This document shows, piece by piece, positions 2,157 through 63,366 of a stretch of DNA of 64,000 bases; the stretch's first letter is position 1; every line of letters begins with the position of its first letter. The notes under the pieces were generated by a model, which did not search any database, was not told the origin of the DNA, and saw only the letters and a list, made by a program, of their open reading frames with translations. The stretch lies in assembly GCA_020279385.1 (NCBI GenBank), contig GCA_020279385.1_4762.2, one strand, 5' to 3'. Made by a program: the position numbers and the translations under genes. The DNA is from a phage.

Positions 2157-2164
2157 TATTTATA
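2157..2164 (-). promoter_or_regulatory. T4-type late promoter (TATAAATA) for gene 36
   Basis: Exact TATAAATA on minus strand 34 nt upstream of the gp36 start. Confidence 0.5.
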
Positions 2165-2282
2165 GAATGTTAACAAAATATCGCTTCGCGACGTGCCGTA
2201 GGCACTGACTACTTTTTAACCGAAACAAATTTTTTATTATTCTAAAGATCTTTCTTCGTTTTGGTTATGTTTTAACCAACTG

Positions 2283-2314
2283 TATAAAAATAAAGCCGAC
2301 CACGAGGATCGGCG
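2283..2314 (-). terminator. Rho-independent terminator after gene 35
   Basis: Minus-strand hairpin GCCGATCCTCGTGGTCGGC followed by TTTATTTTTA. Confidence 0.45.
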
Positions 2315-12008: not shown

Positions 12009-13187
12009 ATGTTAGTACGTCAAGCACATGAGATTCGTATAGAAATAAAAGGAAACACGAAAACTCCCTTCTATTGGGAAAATGTTGTAAAAAATTCATG
12101 TTTGGAAGTTGGTTATTCTTTCATGGGGTTTGTTGGAGAATGGTCTGGTCTCAAAACAAAAGCTCTTATATTATGTAATAACAAGCATGAATACACATCA
12201 ACTCTAGCAAATATCAGGAAAAAAGTTTCGTGTAAGAAATGTGTGGTTGATTCTCAAAGATTAAACCTAAACCATGTGATAGAAAGAATAAAACAAGAAA
12301 CAAACGATGTATTTGTTGGTTTTGTTGGTGGGGAGTATAAAAATAGCAGAACAAGACTCATTATGAACTGTGCAAACGGACACACATACCAACCAACATA
12401 TACAGATTTCATTCATCAAAAAACAAGATGTCCTTTATGTAACGGTGGCAAGATGTATGATAAAGAAGATTCCTTATCTTATATAAATGAAAATAAAGGA
12501 GATTATAAATTTTTGGGTATAATTGGGGAATGGAAAGGAACAAAAACTAAACTTAAATTTGAGTGTCCTAATAATCACATTTACGAACAAAGTTATGATA
12601 AGTTCAAACTAGGTCGTCGGTGTCACAAATGTAGCGGAACAGCACCAATAACAAAAAGTGACCGATTAAAACAAATTGAAAAAATATGCGAAACCAACAG
12701 ACTAAAATTTATTGGGATTTCAGGAAAGTGGAAAGGTGCATTAACAAGAATACTTCTGACATGCGAACGTAACCATGAATGGGTTGTAACTATTGATAAT
12801 TTTGTTAATCGCGGAACACGCTGCCCGTTGTGTTCTAAGCATGGTTATCAGGCATTAAAGACAGGAACTCTTTATATACAGAAATTAACCAACAATGATT
12901 CCTTTGTTGGCGTGAAATTTGGAATAACAAACAAAGAAACACATGAGCGCATGAGAAACCAATCTCGTGTTTCAAAGTTCGATCACGAGATCTTTTATGA
13001 ATTGACTTTACAAGATGGTCAAAAGATCTTAGAATTAGAAAACAAAATCAAGGAAGCGATGAAAGGTAAAACTTCCTATATCTCGAAAGAAGATATGCCG
13101 GATGGCTGGACAGAGACAGTAGCGCCGTCTGAATTGAGCACTATCATGTATATCGTAAAATCTTTTGAAAAAGAGTTGACAGCGTAA
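12009..13187 (+). CDS. Four tandem zinc-ribbon repeats plus C-terminal GIY-YIG-superfamily (T5orf172-like) domain; putative homing-endonuclease-like or DNA-binding protein
   Basis: Four ~65-aa repeats each with GxxGEWxGxKTK...C..NH.Y...Y..F.....C..C; C-terminus GTLYIQKL...VGVKFGITNKETHERMRNQ...DGWTET; start reassigned to ATG 12009 after AGGAGG. Confidence 0.5.
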   Translation: MLVRQAHEIRIEIKGNTKTPFYWENVVKNSCLEVGYSFMGFVGEWSGLKTKALILCNNKHEYTSTLANIRKKVSCKKCVVDSQRLNLNHVIERIKQETNDVFVGFVGGEYKNSRTRLIMNCANGHTYQPTYTDFIHQKTRCPLCNGGKMYDKEDSLSYINENKGDYKFLGIIGEWKGTKTKLKFECPNNHIYEQSYDKFKLGRRCHKCSGTAPITKSDRLKQIEKICETNRLKFIGISGKWKGALTRILLTCERNHEWVVTIDNFVNRGTRCPLCSKHGYQALKTGTLYIQKLTNNDSFVGVKFGITNKETHERMRNQSRVSKFDHEIFYELTLQDGQKILELENKIKEAMKGKTSYISKEDMPDGWTETVAPSELSTIMYIVKSFEKELTA

Positions 13188-13203
13188 CGCAACAGTGTAT
13201 AAT
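13176..13203 (+). promoter_or_regulatory. Sigma70-like early promoter
   Basis: TTGACA - 16 nt - TATAAT at the 3' end of the preceding ORF, followed by ACAAACATCGAAACAAAGAGAGG leader. Confidence 0.45.
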
Positions 13204-13234
13204 ACAAACATCGAAACAAAGAGAGGATTATATT

Positions 13235-13564
13235 ATGTGGACAGTAGAAAAAATCGTAGACGAATCAACCGAAATTGTCTCATGCGGGACTATTGAAGAA
13301 TGTCTTAACGCCGCTAACCGCGATTGTATTACGGTTTATGAATCTCGTCGCGGGGATGGCAGCTTAATTCAAAGTGATTATCGTTACACCGCACATAAAA
13401 TTGTATTCCGTTTCTGGGAAAACGGTGTTAATGTTGGTGTCAGCTTACTGAAAATGTGGCGTGATTATTCCGAACGCTATTATGTTTCTCCCGATGATGG
13501 TAATGAATTTAAAACCGAGATCACAGAAGAAAATGTAAACGAAAACTTCTTTAAACTGATTTGA
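13235..13564 (+). CDS. Hypothetical protein (109 aa)
   Basis: ORF with RBS AGAGAGG; no recognisable motif. Confidence 0.5.
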   Translation: MWTVEKIVDESTEIVSCGTIEECLNAANRDCITVYESRRGDGSLIQSDYRYTAHKIVFRFWENGVNVGVSLLKMWRDYSERYYVSPDDGNEFKTEITEENVNENFFKLI

Positions 13565-13578
13565 CAGGAGATTATATT

Positions 13579-14148
13579 ATGATTCAATGTGTATTTGCGA
13601 TTGGTAACACTAAAATGTCGGATGAAAATTGGGCTTTTGGTTTTAAAGGTGGCTTACCGTGGGGTCGTCCAATCAAAAAAGATATGGAAAACTTTCAAAT
13701 CCGCACTATTGGTGAGGTTGATTTTTCTGCGGTAGTAATGGGACGCAATACCTTTGAAAGTCTGCCTAAAGCACTTTGGGGACGTTTGAATGTGGTTGTT
13801 AGCACCGATACCAACAAGCCAGAACCGAAAGCTAAAAACGGCGACCAACCTGATGTGTATACTGGAATTGAATTGAAGGATCTGTTAAAAGCCCTAGAGA
13901 AAACGCAAGGTTTGGTAAGTGTTATCGGCGGACCTTCCCTGATTGAAAAAGCGGTTGACTTTGCGGACCGTATTGTGTTAACGTATGTTCAACGTTCAGG
14001 GATCAACGATCCATTTGAATATGATGTTGGAATCTCTAAGGAAATGATTCAGGAATTATATTTTGACTTTGCAACAAAAGAAGAACATAGTTACTTCCTT
14101 GATGATTACCTGATCAGCGAACAAATTTTAGAACGTAAGAAGGCGTAA
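13579..14148 (+). CDS. frd: Dihydrofolate reductase
   Basis: Position between 32 and td as in T4; size ~190 aa; start set at ATG 13579 after AGGAG. Confidence 0.75.
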   Translation: MIQCVFAIGNTKMSDENWAFGFKGGLPWGRPIKKDMENFQIRTIGEVDFSAVVMGRNTFESLPKALWGRLNVVVSTDTNKPEPKAKNGDQPDVYTGIELKDLLKALEKTQGLVSVIGGPSLIEKAVDFADRIVLTYVQRSGINDPFEYDVGISKEMIQELYFDFATKEEHSYFLDDYLISEQILERKKA

Positions 14149-51705: not shown

Positions 51706-51980
51706 TGGACAAGAAAACAGCGTTAATGGTTTACATGCTACGCGAAGACCACGGTCTTAATTTTGTTGATATTGCTAAGAAGATTGGCGGTATCAGCGGA
51801 CAAGATGCGGCTAAGGCATGGTTGATGGTAAAAGATGCACGCGAGGCTTACGCCAACCGTGAAAAGGTTGTTTATCGTAAACACCACATCAACAAAAAAT
51901 TTAAAAATAAAGTTCAAAAACGTGTTGACAAGCCAAATAACACTGTTATAATGGACGCATTCAAACGGGCAATGTCCTGA
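51705..51980 (+). CDS. Hypothetical protein (91 aa)
   Basis: ATG overlapping upstream stop (TGATG); basic C-terminus. Confidence 0.45.
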   Translation: MDKKTALMVYMLREDHGLNFVDIAKKIGGISGQDAAKAWLMVKDAREAYANREKVVYRKHHINKKFKNKVQKRVDKPNNTVIMDAFKRAMS

Positions 51981-52026
51981 TTTGTAATTAATATTCTGAA
52001 TAACTAATCAATAGAGGTGACTAATT

Positions 52027-52464
52027 ATGAAATTCCGTAAAAACCACGTAGCAATGAAAAAGGCAATGTTCGAAGCATTCAAAGCAGTTGATCAGGGCGG
52101 TGTTACTCTGATTGAGCAAATTAATGTTGATGTTTGGCAATCTCCGGCGATCACCTGCTCCCGTCTTGCTACGGCTGGCCTTCTGAAAGTTCACAGCTCT
52201 ACCGCATACGACGAAGCATTGCAAGTTATTAAGGCTTTTGCTGGAGACGTTACCAGCAAGTGGGTCTATGAGAATAAAGGTGAAATTGCGGTTGCTCACG
52301 TAGGCAACAATATCCAGATGGAAATCAAGATTAAGGAAGGGTCTAAACGCAATCAGATGCTTGTTCGCTTCCAGCCATACAAAACTAACGTAGTGCCGGA
52401 TGATCTGATCATCTCTAAGAGTAATGTTACCATTCGCCGAAATCAGATCGTTATCAACAAATAA
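52027..52464 (+). CDS. Hypothetical protein (145 aa)
   Basis: ORF with GAGGTGA RBS. Confidence 0.5.
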   Translation: MKFRKNHVAMKKAMFEAFKAVDQGGVTLIEQINVDVWQSPAITCSRLATAGLLKVHSSTAYDEALQVIKAFAGDVTSKWVYENKGEIAVAHVGNNIQMEIKIKEGSKRNQMLVRFQPYKTNVVPDDLIISKSNVTIRRNQIVINK

Positions 52465-52470
52465 TTAACA

Positions 52471-52500
52471 TTAGCCGTCCTTCTGGGCGGCTTTTTTGTA
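52471..52500 (+). terminator. Rho-independent terminator
   Basis: AGCCGTCCTTCTGGGCGGCT hairpin followed by TTTTTTGTATC. Confidence 0.7.
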
Positions 52501-52520
52501 TCTGTTATTAACATAATTTT

Positions 52521-52576
52521 AGTTTACATGTGCACAATATTAATACTGTTTGATTAAATTATGATCAAAACGAAGA
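52521..52576 (+). repeat. Intergenic direct repeat copy 1 (TTACATGT...TGATTAAATTATGATCAAAACGAAGA)
   Basis: 26-bp core TGATTAAATTATGATCAAAACGAAGA at 52551..52576 repeated exactly at 52700..52725; both preceded by TTTACATGT. Confidence 0.6.
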
Positions 52577-52686
52577 AAGATCTTTAGAACATAGAAAATG
52601 TATCTTTGGTTAATTATTAATCACTACATATTGTAACACAAATGTTATACTCCGTAGGAGTTCGCGAAGCGATATCCTTTTGTGTA

Positions 52687-52725
52687 GTTTTTACATGTAT
52701 GATTAAATTATGATCAAAACGAAGA
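52687..52725 (+). repeat. Intergenic direct repeat copy 2
   Basis: Exact second copy of the 26-bp core. Confidence 0.6.
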
Positions 52726-52878
52726 CTTATCTTATAGAATAATAAAAATTTGTTTCGAACATTTATTAATCAATTACTGGAAGTGTTTTTATTGCTCGCT
52801 GTGCTCGCTTCCGCTACGCGGATACTTGTATTTGTTATTAACTTGTAGTATGATATTGCTTTCTATGGAGGAAATATT

Positions 52879-53466
52879 ATGTTTGACCAGTTACAAGATC
52901 TATTTGGAGTAAAACCACTTCGTAGATGTGCTTTAATAGGCTCTAGAAAAGCGCCTAGCGACATTTTGATAATGGCTAGTACCATTGGGAGGGTATTGTC
53001 AGAAAATCGCGTTGTAGCGCATTCTGGAGGGGCTTACGGTATGGACAATGCTTTCATGAAGTATTACGATCCAGATTATAGAAAAATTTTCATTCCAAAT
53101 TGGAAGTTTTATGACCACAAGCATAACGGTCATGATGTTATTGCATGGCAAACATTAGAACAAAAAAATCTGGCGATGGATGAATTAGAACATGTTTATG
53201 ATAATCCTCGTTCTATACCGTTATACATGCAAAATCTGTTTTCTAGAAATGTTGCTCAAGTCTTAGGTGAGACACTTGATGATCCTGTAGATTGTGTGAT
53301 ATTCTGGGCGAAAGAAGTTAATGGAATCGTTTCGGGAGGAACTAGAATTGCTGTTTATGTTGCCCGTAGACATGGGATACCATGTTTTAACTTATATCAT
53401 CAAGAAAATAGATCCGCCGTCGAAAAAATCTTGGGCGGATCTGACTTGTCTTGGTTAGATATTTAG
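52879..53466 (+). CDS. SLOG / DprA-like Rossmann-fold protein
   Basis: LIGSRKAPSD, HSGGAYGMDNAF, SRNVAQV, IVSGGTRIAVYVARRHGIPCF resemble DprA/SLOG motifs; sits where T4 has rnlB but lacks a ligase KxDG motif. Confidence 0.45.
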   Translation: MFDQLQDLFGVKPLRRCALIGSRKAPSDILIMASTIGRVLSENRVVAHSGGAYGMDNAFMKYYDPDYRKIFIPNWKFYDHKHNGHDVIAWQTLEQKNLAMDELEHVYDNPRSIPLYMQNLFSRNVAQVLGETLDDPVDCVIFWAKEVNGIVSGGTRIAVYVARRHGIPCFNLYHQENRSAVEKILGGSDLSWLDI

Positions 53467-54708
53467 TTAAGCGTTGTCAATCTCAAGCGGTGGCAGTTCG
53501 ATTCCTAAAATGTAGGACATTTCTGAACGTCCAGCCATTTTACCCCAATCGTCACCCTTGATGACCTGGTGTTCTTCCTGATCAACTTTTGATGTGTATG
53601 GGTTGACAGAGAGTGAATAACGATTCATAATAGCTACATGATGCTGGAAGCTATTGGGGTCAATTACACTCTTATACGCGCCAGCGCCGTCGGCTTCTGT
53701 ATATGGGGAGTAGAACAGAGAACCTACACTCTCCATATCACCGATCATGTGCTTACAACCAACGAGCATATAATCGAAAGGTGTTGTCGTGTCTGCGTAC
53801 ACTTCCAGACCGCAACGTAGACGACCTTCGCTTAGAGCATTGTCGGTTTCTTCCATCCAACCGGAAGATTGCAGGAGGCCAACCACGCGAGAAGACGCCA
53901 AAACGTATGTACCAGCAAAGGAGGAAGTCCGCAACATTTGATTGCTCATTTCGCAAGCATAGCGGTAAAGTTCACGCGCTTGTGCTGGTGCATCCTGAAC
54001 GCTAACGAGAGAAAGTACGCCGTCAGGGGTGATCCCTTTAATTTTATAGCGAGATGATACAGTGATCAACTTCTGAATAATATCTTTGTTGATCTCTTCG
54101 GAAGCGATCGTAGCCAGAAGATCAATTACAGAGTTTTCAGAGTTGATTTGGCTTGCCTCAAGATCCTGCATCAATTCGGTCGTGAATGAGGTTTTCAGTT
54201 TACGAGAACCTACATTAACCTGCCATTTATCAAACTGCATAGAGGTAGACGAAATTTCGGTGTTTTTATCTTCAAAGTATTCTACCGATGCACAATCGCT
54301 ATAGAAACGAATTTTGTTTGTCATTACGCCTTTAAAGATTGCGGCTTCTGGAGTTTCGGCATCTTCACCGACTGTACCAGCGGTCACAACTTCGTATACA
54401 ACATCGCCTGATTTGAATAGTGCGCCTTCGTCATAAGATTTTTCTTTTGAAAACTCTTCAATCTCTGTGCGATCACCAGCCGCGCCACCGTAGGTTGTAG
54501 CAGTTCGGAAAGTCATCTGACCATCACGATTAAGATAACGTAGTCCGTACAATGCAGATACTGGTTGATCCGTTGGCTGGATTGCTACCAGATCAGAGAA
54601 AATCAGGTTGTTTACCGCGCGAGTTAATGATAATAGTTGCGGTCGCGCTGTCTGGTTAGCTACTGAGGAAGTAGATTCCCGCAACAGTTCAGTAAAAATA
54701 TGAGTCAT
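53467..54708 (-). CDS. 24: Head vertex protein gp24
   Basis: MTHIFTELLREST... aligns with T4 gp24 N-terminus as recalled (MAKINELLREST...); start moved to internal Met at 54708 so the late promoter lies upstream; gp23-like fold. Confidence 0.85.
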   Translation of the reverse strand: MTHIFTELLRESTSSVANQTARPQLLSLTRAVNNLIFSDLVAIQPTDQPVSALYGLRYLNRDGQMTFRTATTYGGAAGDRTEIEEFSKEKSYDEGALFKSGDVVYEVVTAGTVGEDAETPEAAIFKGVMTNKIRFYSDCASVEYFEDKNTEISSTSMQFDKWQVNVGSRKLKTSFTTELMQDLEASQINSENSVIDLLATIASEEINKDIIQKLITVSSRYKIKGITPDGVLSLVSVQDAPAQARELYRYACEMSNQMLRTSSFAGTYVLASSRVVGLLQSSGWMEETDNALSEGRLRCGLEVYADTTTPFDYMLVGCKHMIGDMESVGSLFYSPYTEADGAGAYKSVIDPNSFQHHVAIMNRYSLSVNPYTSKVDQEEHQVIKGDDWGKMAGRSEMSYILGIELPPLEIDNA

Positions 54709-61356: not shown

Positions 61357-63366
61357 TTATGCCTGGTTAGCTGGACCGATAATTTCGTCAAAGTCAGCAC
61401 CAGTTGCAACAGCAGTGAAATTGAGCATGATATAGTTGATCGATTTTGCTGGTTTGATGAACATACTAGCAACAAATTCATTACGATCAATTACATCCGG
61501 CGTGTTGTTCGTGGTGTCGCATTGTACTCGGAAGTCATAAATGCCGCCCAGAGAGCGAATCGTGCTGAGATATTGCGAAACCTCCATACGGAAGGAAGCG
61601 CGAGTAAAGTTATCGTTGTTTTCAAACAGTTTGTATTTGCTTGAATCGCCGATATTCTTTTTCAGCATGTTAAACAGACGACGAACGTTAATTCGGTCAA
61701 ACGGGCTAGGAACAGTCGTAGCGGTTTTATCACCCATCAGGATAAACCCTTCACCACCAGCACCGATCACCGGGTTAATTGCGGCCTGATACAGACGATC
61801 GCGGTGCGCCTTGCGAGGCTCAATTGCCAGTTTAACCACGTTCATGATCTGACCACGGTTATAACCTGCCGGACTCATCCACGGCTGGGATACAGCATCA
61901 GTACGAGCGCACAAACCAGCAATATCAGCAGCCAACGGAACCCAACGGTTTACGTCGTTGTATTTGTCATACTGATATTTGTAGTTACCATCAATAACCG
62001 CGTAAGTGGTATTAATGTTCATGTTGTTTTCATTATAGTTTCCTGAACCTTCGCGCCATGCAATCAGGTTATCAATTGCGGTAGTCACCGGAATATTAAC
62101 AACAGTGCTACGCGGCGGAGAAACCATTACTAAGCAATCCTGACGCTCATCACCGATGGAAACAGCATGTTTCTGTACGGTAGAGAACGCATCGCCTTCG
62201 CCAGCACATGCACCAGCGATCAACAGGTTTACGTGAATAGATTCACGTTCAGCAAACAGATCCCAACCTTGCATCATCGCACCGATGAACGGATCAGCAC
62301 CAACTCCACCAGTCGTTGCTTCGTTAGCAGAAACACCACCAGCAAGAGAGATAATACCACTGAAACCATCTACCCACCCTTGAGCGGTTGCATAGATGTA
62401 CTGGCTAGAACCACGAGCAAAGAAGTCGTCCATGTAGATAGAATTTCCGTATACGTCTTTATCCCCTTTCAGAGTAGACAGTACATAGGATTCTACCACA
62501 ACACCATCGCGACGAACAATAAATGCATATTGATTATCATTCTGCGGTGCATATGGAATCAGGTTGCGTGCTGCGGCACGAGTTCCGCCGAACGGATACA
62601 TAGTTAATTCAGGTGCTACCGCGCCACTGAACGCGCTACGTGCCAGAATTTCAACTTCCAGCGAGTTGCCAATCTCACCAGCATAGATCGCGCTTACCGC
62701 TGGCATATCATACTTCTGGAGTTTAGTCAAGAAAGTCTGATTTGTGATATTGGCGCGGGAAGTTTCCAGATCCGTTAACAGAAGACCGGAATCAGTAACA
62801 ATTTTAGTTACTGACAGCGCCGCACTACCGTTACCTGACGAAGAAGTGAACTCTGCCGTCCAACCGCCATCAAGTTCTGGATATACACCGATTGCTTTAG
62901 CGTGAGCGATAATTTTACCAGTTGGGATAAATACGCCCTTAACTTTACCATCACCATCACCATCAACTTTAGTTACTTTACCAGCCGTTTCAATATCTTG
63001 ACGGTTATGTTTAATCTTGATGGTATCGCCTACTTCATAGTTTGAACCTTCGTTTGTGATTTCAAACTCTACGTTACCAGCTAGGGCAGTTGCGTTTTTT
63101 GCTTTTTCTTTATTGAGTACACGAACAACACGCAGGTCATTGCCATACTGGAGGAAGTTAGCCCCGCTCATGAAATAGTCTGCGGTGTTATTATCCGGCT
63201 GACCAAATTTATTAACTAATTCAACTTCATTAGTTACTTGAACAATCTGGAAAGCTGGACCCCATTGAAATTTACCTACCAGCGCCGCGCGACCAGTCGC
63301 AGATTGCACAATGGTAGTGGAGAGAGTAGTTTCTTTCGTTTCGAAACCCGGTGATAATAGAGTCAT
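61357..63366 (-). CDS. 18: Tail sheath protein gp18
   Basis: 669 aa; MTLLSPG..., GKFQWGPAFQI, YKYQYDKYNDVNRWVPLAADIAGLCARTD, SPFDRINVRRLFNMLK match T4 gp18 as recalled. Confidence 0.96.
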   Translation of the reverse strand: MTLLSPGFETKETTLSTTIVQSATGRAALVGKFQWGPAFQIVQVTNEVELVNKFGQPDNNTADYFMSGANFLQYGNDLRVVRVLNKEKAKNATALAGNVEFEITNEGSNYEVGDTIKIKHNRQDIETAGKVTKVDGDGDGKVKGVFIPTGKIIAHAKAIGVYPELDGGWTAEFTSSSGNGSAALSVTKIVTDSGLLLTDLETSRANITNQTFLTKLQKYDMPAVSAIYAGEIGNSLEVEILARSAFSGAVAPELTMYPFGGTRAAARNLIPYAPQNDNQYAFIVRRDGVVVESYVLSTLKGDKDVYGNSIYMDDFFARGSSQYIYATAQGWVDGFSGIISLAGGVSANEATTGGVGADPFIGAMMQGWDLFAERESIHVNLLIAGACAGEGDAFSTVQKHAVSIGDERQDCLVMVSPPRSTVVNIPVTTAIDNLIAWREGSGNYNENNMNINTTYAVIDGNYKYQYDKYNDVNRWVPLAADIAGLCARTDAVSQPWMSPAGYNRGQIMNVVKLAIEPRKAHRDRLYQAAINPVIGAGGEGFILMGDKTATTVPSPFDRINVRRLFNMLKKNIGDSSKYKLFENNDNFTRASFRMEVSQYLSTIRSLGGIYDFRVQCDTTNNTPDVIDRNEFVASMFIKPAKSINYIMLNFTAVATGADFDEIIGPANQA

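Follow-up and report, generated by a model that had tools for sequence, protein, structure and literature searches.

The AT-rich gap at positions 52501–52878 of the window (the whole 64,000-nt stretch of phage DNA analysed here) contains two tandem copies of a 73-nt palindromic core, each followed by short GC-rich hairpins. We tentatively read these modules, from sequence and with a probability of only about 0.38, as promoter-less, recombination-prone stem-loop cassettes that may serve as terminators or insulators. On this reading, a 330-bp insert would consist of two tandem promoter-less cassettes placed after the upstream gene's terminator and before the weak promoter of a DprA-like gene, with each cassette composed of a 73-nt AT-rich core, one or two GC-rich triloop hairpins and a T-rich tract. 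The GC-rich hairpins would most likely work at the RNA level, protecting 3′ ends and serving as back-up terminators or insulators that halt read-through from the upstream operon ahead of the next promoter. The AT-rich core would be the dispersed and probably recombining part; homogenised within the genome and shared by exchange with a prophage family of E. coli, it probably carried the cassette to three intergenic sites. No description of this four-copy element family was found in the libraries and literature searched.

The window phage is a Krischvirus, an RB49-like T4-type coliphage. The 436 bp around the gap are 100% identical to phage Whisky, and conservation in related phages, which the initial annotation had proposed as a check, was evident throughout: in a phage collection search the gap region was at least 95% identical in 59/59 Krischvirus records, and it has a counterpart in a divergent contig, L190. 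Among phages outside Krischvirus in the same collection there was no match to the 436-bp region. The RB49 counterpart (97435–97847) is the interval between RB49p165 (hypothetical) and RB49p164 (DprA-like), in a wider neighbourhood flanked by hoc/inh and, at the opposite side, gene 24; at 413 bp it ranks second-largest among the unannotated gaps in the RB49 RefSeq annotation. The GC content is 0.29–0.31 in the gap compared to about 0.37–0.46 in the flanks, and the AT-richness first ascribed to 52501–52878 is real (GC about 0.30), as is the terminator reported just upstream, for which a terminator scan returned 52473–52492 and its T-run. At the far end of the window, positions 1–300 gave no megablast match to RB49, suggesting that this stretch is missing from, or diverged in, the reference genome.

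The gap was initially described as non-coding and our data agree. It contains only TTG-start ORFs of 28–32 aa, and the 32-aa ORF, at 52750, was rejected, its frame being shifted by a T-run indel at 52786 among relatives. A tiny ORF in core A (MIKTKKDL*) was likewise discarded; it is not conserved, and its ATG is missing in copies C and D. No ORF of at least 50 aa lies inside the L190 gap, and a tRNA/tmRNA search found none. The SSG23 and UPWr_E1 records show an ORF inside module B (window 52750–52848) or a DprA-like gene stretched upstream into the gap. Because the T-run indel at 52786 shifts the frame, the gap ORF annotations in these few records are not credible, and calls of the SSG23/UPWr_E1 type appear spurious given this indel and the absent ribosome-binding site.

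The direct repeats proved to belong to a unit that is longer than first noted, ~78 nt with 78% identity and 149-bp spacing, and that has more copies outside 52501–52878. The 26-mer TGATTAAATTATGATCAAAACGAAGA is exact at 52551–52576 and 52700–52725, where shuffled sequences expect 0. The TTTACATGT motif said to precede each 26-mer is present at 52523 and 52690, at unequal distances of 19 nt (first copy) and 1 nt (second copy). Of the shorter repeats, TGTTATTAAC was recovered as part of a 17-nt repeat (16/17 identical, 52496–52512 and 52826–52842), and TTATTAATCA is present at 52614 with its second copy at 52763, one position from the 52764 first given. By contrast, the description of the repeats as iteron-like did not hold: there are only two copies, at 149-bp spacing, of a palindromic unit of 73–78 nt. 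No array was detected in the gap by Tandem Repeats Finder, three or more evenly spaced repeats of about 12–22 bp, as in an iteron origin, do not occur in it, and there is no GC-skew change there. What survives of the initial annotation is a non-coding region with non-random repeats that are conserved in relatives; the iteron-like origin is not supported.

Each core is an imperfect AT-rich palindrome, TGATTAAA...TAATCA, of 73 nt (72–76 nt in every case) with a GC content of 0.19–0.25. The core ends, TGATTAA...TTAATCA, pair over 7 bp in A and B, over 6 bp with G.T pairs in C and D and over 6 bp in the prophage copy described below, and the inverted repeat of core B has 31-nt arms that are 71% complementary. 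A covariance model located exactly three cores in the window and a fourth (D) in RB49, with none elsewhere in the 164-kb genome (Table 1). The Krischvirus genome holds exactly four copies at three intergenic loci, each oriented like the gene that follows it. Copy C is upstream of the gp36 late promoter, which Nolan 2006 placed at RB49 150089–150131, and copy D is flanked by two divergent late promoters, those of RB49p130 and gene 3. In the 5′ arm, columns 16–26 (CAAAACGAAGA) and 30–34 (ATCTT) do not vary among the paralogues, and the 3′ arm is variable. A 14-mer, ACTGTATAAAAATA, at window 2279–2300 (RB49 149979–150021) recurs in sense orientation upstream of copy D; a high-scoring late promoter over it, on the strand opposite copy C, was predicted in Nolan et al. 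2006.

Short GC-rich triloop hairpins follow each core. The core, hp1 and hp2 layout is kept and the stem sequences differ between copies; the C-GAA-G loop of hp2 is found in RB49 copies A and C, in L190 and in the prophage, again on different stems. The hp2 block TTCGCGAAGCGATATC is 16/16 identical in L190, and TCGCGAAGCGATAT is identical downstream of core C. The two-module insert is bracketed by a hairpin plus the 17-nt repeat TTGTATYTGTTATTAAC, 16/17 identical at 330-bp spacing.

Table 1 Features of the gap, of the further copies of the module and their counterparts in contig L190. Coordinates are those of the window unless stated; hp, hairpin.
Feature	Position	Strand	Sequence or structure	Remarks
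Intrinsic terminator of RB49p165 homologue	52473..52500	+	AGCCGTCC-TTCT-GGGCGGCT then T-run	86% identity to L190
17-nt junction repeat, copy 1	52496..52512	+	TTGTATCTGTTATTAAC	Directly 3′ of hairpin
Box ahead of module A	52523..52531	+	TTTACATGT	TTTAC box heads both L190 modules too
Core A	52551..52623	+		Covariance-model match 82.5 bits; few variable sites in 9 genomes
A-specific AT-rich tail	52624..52649	+	CACTACAT...AAATGTTATA	71% conserved with L190
Module A hp1	52650..52660	+	CTCC-GTA-GGAG	L190 ATCC-GAA-GGAT, compensatory C-G to A-T; hp1 + hp2 match L190 at 24/27 positions
Module A hp2 (GCGAAGC minihairpin) and T-rich tract	52662..52692	+	TCGC-GAA-GCGA then TATCCTTTTGTGTAGTTTTT	Terminator-like
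Box ahead of module B	52690..52698	+	TTTACATGT	Direct repeat
Core B	52700..52772	+		Covariance-model match 74.9 bits; 3 variable sites in 9 genomes
Direct repeat GCTCGCT split by G	52794..52809	+	GCTCGCTGTGCTCGCT	L190 has GCTCGCTTTGCTCGC
B tail including GCTCGCTNTGCTCGC				70% identity to L190
Module B single hairpin (no hp2) and T-rich tract	52810..52822	+	TCCGC-TAC-GCGGA then T-rich tract	Terminator-like (terminator scan); L190 TCGGC-GTA-GCCGA, compensatory flip
Putative weak sigma-70 promoter of DprA-like gene	52826..52854	+	TTGTAT-N17-TATGAT	Overlaps junction repeat copy 2 (52826-52842); TTGTWT-N17-TATGAT 78% identity to L190
DprA-like gene	52879-53466	+	Shine-Dalgarno GGAGG + ATG	Shine-Dalgarno and ATG at 52867..52881
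Core C	2206..2278	-		Covariance-model match 88 bits; gp35 terminator (2295-2313) / gp36-like gene interval
Module C tail	2157..2205	-	hp1 GTGCC-TAC-GGCAC, hp2 TCGC-GAA-GCGA, then T-rich tract TATTTTGTT	hp1 2193-2205, hp2 2181-2191; late promoter TATAAATA 2157-2164
Core D	RB49 about 62810-62881	-		Covariance model; outside window
Module D hairpins and tract			hp1 GTGCC-TAC-GGCAC, hp2 GTCGC-AAA-GCGAC, then AT-rich tract AATTGTTAATAAATATTTT	

The comparison that best separates the parts of the module is with L190 (IMGVR_UViG_3300005711_000029), a divergent Krischvirus-like contig that is not represented among sequenced phages. Its DprA-like protein is 87% identical to that of the window (about 81% nucleotide identity over the coding sequence), and its syntenic gap of 574 bp has two tandem modules at 170-bp spacing that are 89% alike over 104 nt. 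Compensatory substitutions in L190 affect the terminator (G-C to A-T), hp1 and the module-B hairpin, and the identity values of these elements are given in Table 1. From this comparison the small hairpins and the weak promoter are under selection, while the AT-rich cores evolve in concert within each genome and differ between lineages. Indeed, the sequences point to concerted evolution of the cores, as the L190 pair are 89% alike and show only 51–59% identity to the RB49-type cores. L190 also has ~190 nt of extra leader (2250–2440), from the TATGAT promoter to the start codon of the DprA-like gene, that holds TTTACTAGAAT, a motif repeated also in the non-coding region of the prophage.

Within Krischvirus, the sites that vary among 9 genomes cluster in the spacer at 52497–52547 and not in the cores or hairpins. 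The cores have 6 (A) and 3 (B) variable sites per 73 nt, which is not above neighbouring genes in these 9 genomes, and copies C and D are also present in the variant genomes whose other loci were compared.

The position of the modules relative to transcription units speaks for the terminator or insulator reading. At all three Krischvirus loci they lie just upstream of the promoter of the next gene; the A/B and C loci, two of the three, also have the terminator of the preceding unit immediately before the modules. The terminator after RB49p165, which is also annotated in the GEC-3S, G2248 and Makalu records, is the sole element that Nolan 2006 gives for RB49 97435–97847, with no early or late promoter there. 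The proposed promoter of the DprA-like gene keeps its hexamers and 17-nt spacing (TTGTWT-N17-TATGAT) in G2248 and L190 with a variable spacer sequence; it falls below the thresholds of a simple promoter scan and of an RB49 early-promoter matrix. This position weight matrix was built from the 41 published RB49 early promoters (Nolan 2006; consensus AAAAAGTTGTTGACA...TATAAT) and returns 45 windows scoring at least 5 genome-wide. Its scores stay below 4 on both strands of 52440–52900, in the surroundings of copies C and D, and on the sense strand at the prophage copy. A generic sigma-70 scan found no sense-strand promoter inside the gap, and the late promoter TATAAATA is absent from it. Individual candidates also failed: TTTACA as an early-promoter −35 has no −10 at 16–18 nt in any copy, TAGAAT in the core as a −10 has a poor −35, a "spacer" that is invariant, unlike in promoters, and no conservation in L190, and by eye no sigma-28, sigma-E, sigma-54, IHF, DnaA or CRP site fits. 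As a separate observation, the terminator at window 52473–52517 is 83% identical over 48 nt to RB49 75307–75354, the terminator upstream of gene 9, where a late promoter, TTTTATAAATAA, follows directly.

Several observations temper the terminator and recombination components of this reading, among them the weak folding of the long hairpin described below. The prophage element does not have a co-oriented upstream gene to terminate. Little read-through may reach modules A and C because both directly follow strong terminators; only two sites pass a simple terminator scan, and the hairpins are short (4–6 bp). A purely recombinational role does not account for the 5′ arm, strictly invariant in paralogues and prophage copy alike next to a variable 3′ arm.

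The closest known elements are the promoter-early stem-loops (PeSLs) of RB49 and phi1 (Arbiol et al. 2010, PMC2839356; Comeau et al. 2014, PMC4122927). PeSLs occur in the same phages as small repeated intergenic cassettes with stable stem-loops beside AT-rich sequence, and the roles proposed for them are the termination of transcription from upstream and modular shuffling. The stem-loop feature is present in the gap, with hairpins at 52473–52492, 52650–52672 and 52810–52822 for which termination is predicted from the sequence, and the gap cassettes, too, are flanked by short direct repeats. A further likeness is an ORF inserted at a cassette end in L040 (IMGVR_UViG_3300045988_033703). However, PeSLs are built round a near-consensus sigma-70 promoter that the gap and copies C and D do not have, number about 51 per genome compared to 4 here, and in their published description have no 73-nt palindrome. 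Because the early-promoter matrix, Nolan et al. and the late-promoter check were all negative, the gap is not a PeSL array. A PeSL sits directly before an ORF, with the Shine-Dalgarno sequence and start codon at its 3′ end; in the gap, only the last hairpin with the weak promoter (52810–52854) abuts a gene, and modules A and B precede another module rather than an ORF. The tandem terminators and intercistronic hairpins of T4-type phages similarly place GC-rich hairpins and U-rich tracts between units and show compensatory changes, but they are not coupled to a conserved 73-nt AT-rich palindrome with further copies elsewhere in the genome and in another phage. RB49-type phages are the model for mobile regulatory cassettes proposed to drive modular genome shuffling, and this element family would add a second, promoter-less cassette class to them; were the modules only back-up terminators, the result would be a useful annotation but biologically ordinary. 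In L040 the extra ORF (about 2741–2892) begins exactly after the second hairpin of module D, and the junction CAATTG|ACA makes a TTGACA −35 with a TAGATT −10 lying 17 nt downstream.

Outside Krischvirus the core was recovered from one source, a prophage family of E. coli. Scanning viral contigs for the exact pattern, then running BLAST, identified a core of the same 73-nt length and about 80% identity, followed by the hairpins GCAACC-GAA-GGTTGC and TCCC-GAA-GGGA, in about 25 prophage-type contigs. The family is present in 57/5426 complete E. coli genomes, integrated for example at ycdX. Searches of E. coli genomes with the RB49 element returned only this prophage family; the 601-bp prophage element region matched only Krischvirus cores among phages and nothing among plasmids, and a metagenome scan gave only Krischvirus and the same family. 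A second shared segment lies within RB49p262, which encodes an LprI-domain protein: 387 bp at 12186–12572 of contig L036 (also in L066 and L177) are 96% identical to RB49 158303–158689, whereas the whole LprI-domain proteins of prophage and RB49p262 are only 56% identical. This segment indicates that Krischviruses and some members of the prophage family recombined recently, and it is direct evidence, accompanying the element, that a virulent T4-type phage and a resident E. coli prophage have exchanged sequence.

In the ycdX prophage (L162, E. coli NZ_CP098223) the element sits in a 1.4-kb non-coding stretch (12522–13910) in which PGAP annotates no RNA. The stretch contains about ten TTCAGGGGCAA(A)AAT iterons (13200–13400), many small GC hairpins, AAGTGAT motifs and, after the iterons, two near-consensus sigma-70 promoters at 13432–13489. 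It is probably the origin or control region of the prophage.

Alternatively, every module could be a separate gene for a small non-coding RNA, about 60–150 nt long, in which CAAAACGAAGA...AUCUUUAGAA would be the functional seed or would bind protein and the GC hairpins with the U-tract would form the terminator. Small RNA genes were already among the initial suggestions, and the hairpins with U-tracts would fit them. In favour are the conserved 5′ segment, the terminal hairpins of A and C with their U-tracts and the terminator-like ends of A, B and C, together with the orientation of the copies along their neighbour genes, the invariant 5′ and varying 3′ arm, and the 71–89% conservation of the tail and hp1/hp2 with L190. 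The sharing of the module by a lytic and a temperate coliphage would be explained, on this account, because the RNA acts on a host target. Phage small RNAs such as T4 rnaC/rnaD and the prophage small RNAs of Rfam also resemble the element in size, intergenic non-coding location and hairpins with U-tracts. The main objection is the promoter, as the early matrix and the generic sigma-70 scan were both empty and no canonical RB49 early promoter is present. Moreover, the "invariant" arm is not conserved in L190, and Rfam 15 gave 0 gathering-level matches across the window, with chance-level hits only in 51900–53500 and the prophage region. A search of RB49 and the prophage for RNA targets complementary to the invariant arm returned only the copies themselves. 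Homologues of T4 rnaC and rnaD were rejected for want of similarity by covariance model, and retron-like, type III antitoxin-like and c4-like elements because a reverse transcriptase, a toxin gene and an Rfam C4 match are all missing. Literature searches for expression of the element found no transcript report, and a full-text search for the motif retrieved unrelated primer sequences only. We consider small RNA genes unlikely.

Tests of the folded structure bear on this alternative in both directions. Across 24 distinct cores, whose effective sequence number is only 2.55, 86% of cells are paired in the long-hairpin register compared to 27–53% in slid registers, and in the same set pair 13–61 occurs as CG, AU, GU and GC and pair 15–59 in three forms. 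G.U pairs make up about 10% of cells and let the sense strand fold better than the antisense, which speaks for the sense strand, whether as RNA or as single-stranded DNA. The long hairpin is nonetheless weak, with z-scores of about −0.2 to −2 and energies near those of shuffled sequence, so that the structure gains no stability over such controls. RNAalifold recovers the invariant GAAGA/UCUUU hairpin and not the long helix, and L190 remodels the core interior.

A broader formulation takes the core and the C-GAA-G minihairpins together as a strand-specific nucleic-acid module common to a lytic T4-type phage and a temperate prophage. The module would be either a trans-acting small RNA in which CAAAACGAAGA...AUCUUUAGAA engages a host factor, or a single-stranded DNA priming or origin signal that marks late-region replication starts in a phage without MotA-type origins. 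We regard this as doubtful. If the cores were small RNAs or origin signals, the regulation of replication starts or accessory genes in MotA-less relatives of T4 would become testable, as would the purpose of the second-largest non-coding gap of RB49.

Somewhat less probable still is a selfish or neutral repeat, similar to a miniature inverted-repeat transposable element and functionless for the phage. Homology stops sharply at the terminal inverted repeats TGATTAA...TTAATCA, the copies are dispersed, with one in an unrelated prophage, and the cores diverge fast between lineages. Miniature inverted-repeat and REP-like elements share the small size, the dispersal, the palindromic form, the terminal inverted repeats and the concerted evolution within a genome. 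Against a selfish origin, no target-site duplications are present in the flanks of A, B, C, D or the prophage copy, the region is whole in all 59 genomes, core length is held, the two-module layout survives in L190 and the cores vary less than the adjoining spacer. The family also differs from those elements in having no known transposase partner, four copies and fixed GC hairpins.

A DNA-level replication origin or priming site, in which the AT-rich palindromes would be unwinding elements and single-stranded DNA would be the working form of the GCGAAGC-type minihairpins and GCT-rich tract of the sense strand, as for single-strand initiation signals, appears improbable. The d(GCGAAGC) sequence forms an unusually stable DNA hairpin and has been reported at phage origins. 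The C-GAA-G hp2 loop is common to copies A and C, L190 and the prophage despite different stems, modules C and D lie outside predicted late transcripts, and some ten iterons form an array about 500 bp away from the prophage element. The low GC content of the cores (0.19–0.25) and the location of the three loci in late-gene regions recall the T4 origins E, F and G (PMC3016281). Like the element, both T4 oriF/oriG (a promoter plus an unwinding element) and oriE (12-nt iterons) are AT-rich non-coding DNA in late regions near changes of transcription direction. In the gap, however, no promoter was found that would send transcripts into the AT-rich element in the manner T4 oriF and oriG require, there are no true iterons and no skew change, and RB49 is without MotA and middle-mode promoters. 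Unwinding elements, furthermore, need no specific sequence (PMC3016281), and no conservation among copies is expected of them, yet the cores are conserved in sequence among paralogues.

Equally improbable is the proposal that the cores are sites for a sequence-specific phage or host protein, forming four regulatory sites by late- or accessory-gene promoters: conserved blocks (CAAAACGAAGA, ATCTT and TAGAA) do stand in a fixed 73-nt frame, C and D adjoin late promoters, and the copies are homogenised per genome and differ by lineage (89% within L190 vs about 55% to RB49-type cores), as binder co-evolution would give, but the asymmetric conservation of the arms is ill-suited to a dimeric palindrome binder, RB49 and the prophage share no candidate protein except the LprI-domain one, which is unlinked to the element, and no IHF, DnaA or CRP consensus was matched by eye.

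One prophage core, in the metagenome contig L171 (OJJG01000368.1), has lost 17 nt at its apex, between two direct repeats of ATCTTT, and the shortened core forms a tidy hairpin, CAAAACGAAGA-AGTA-TCTTTCTTTTG.
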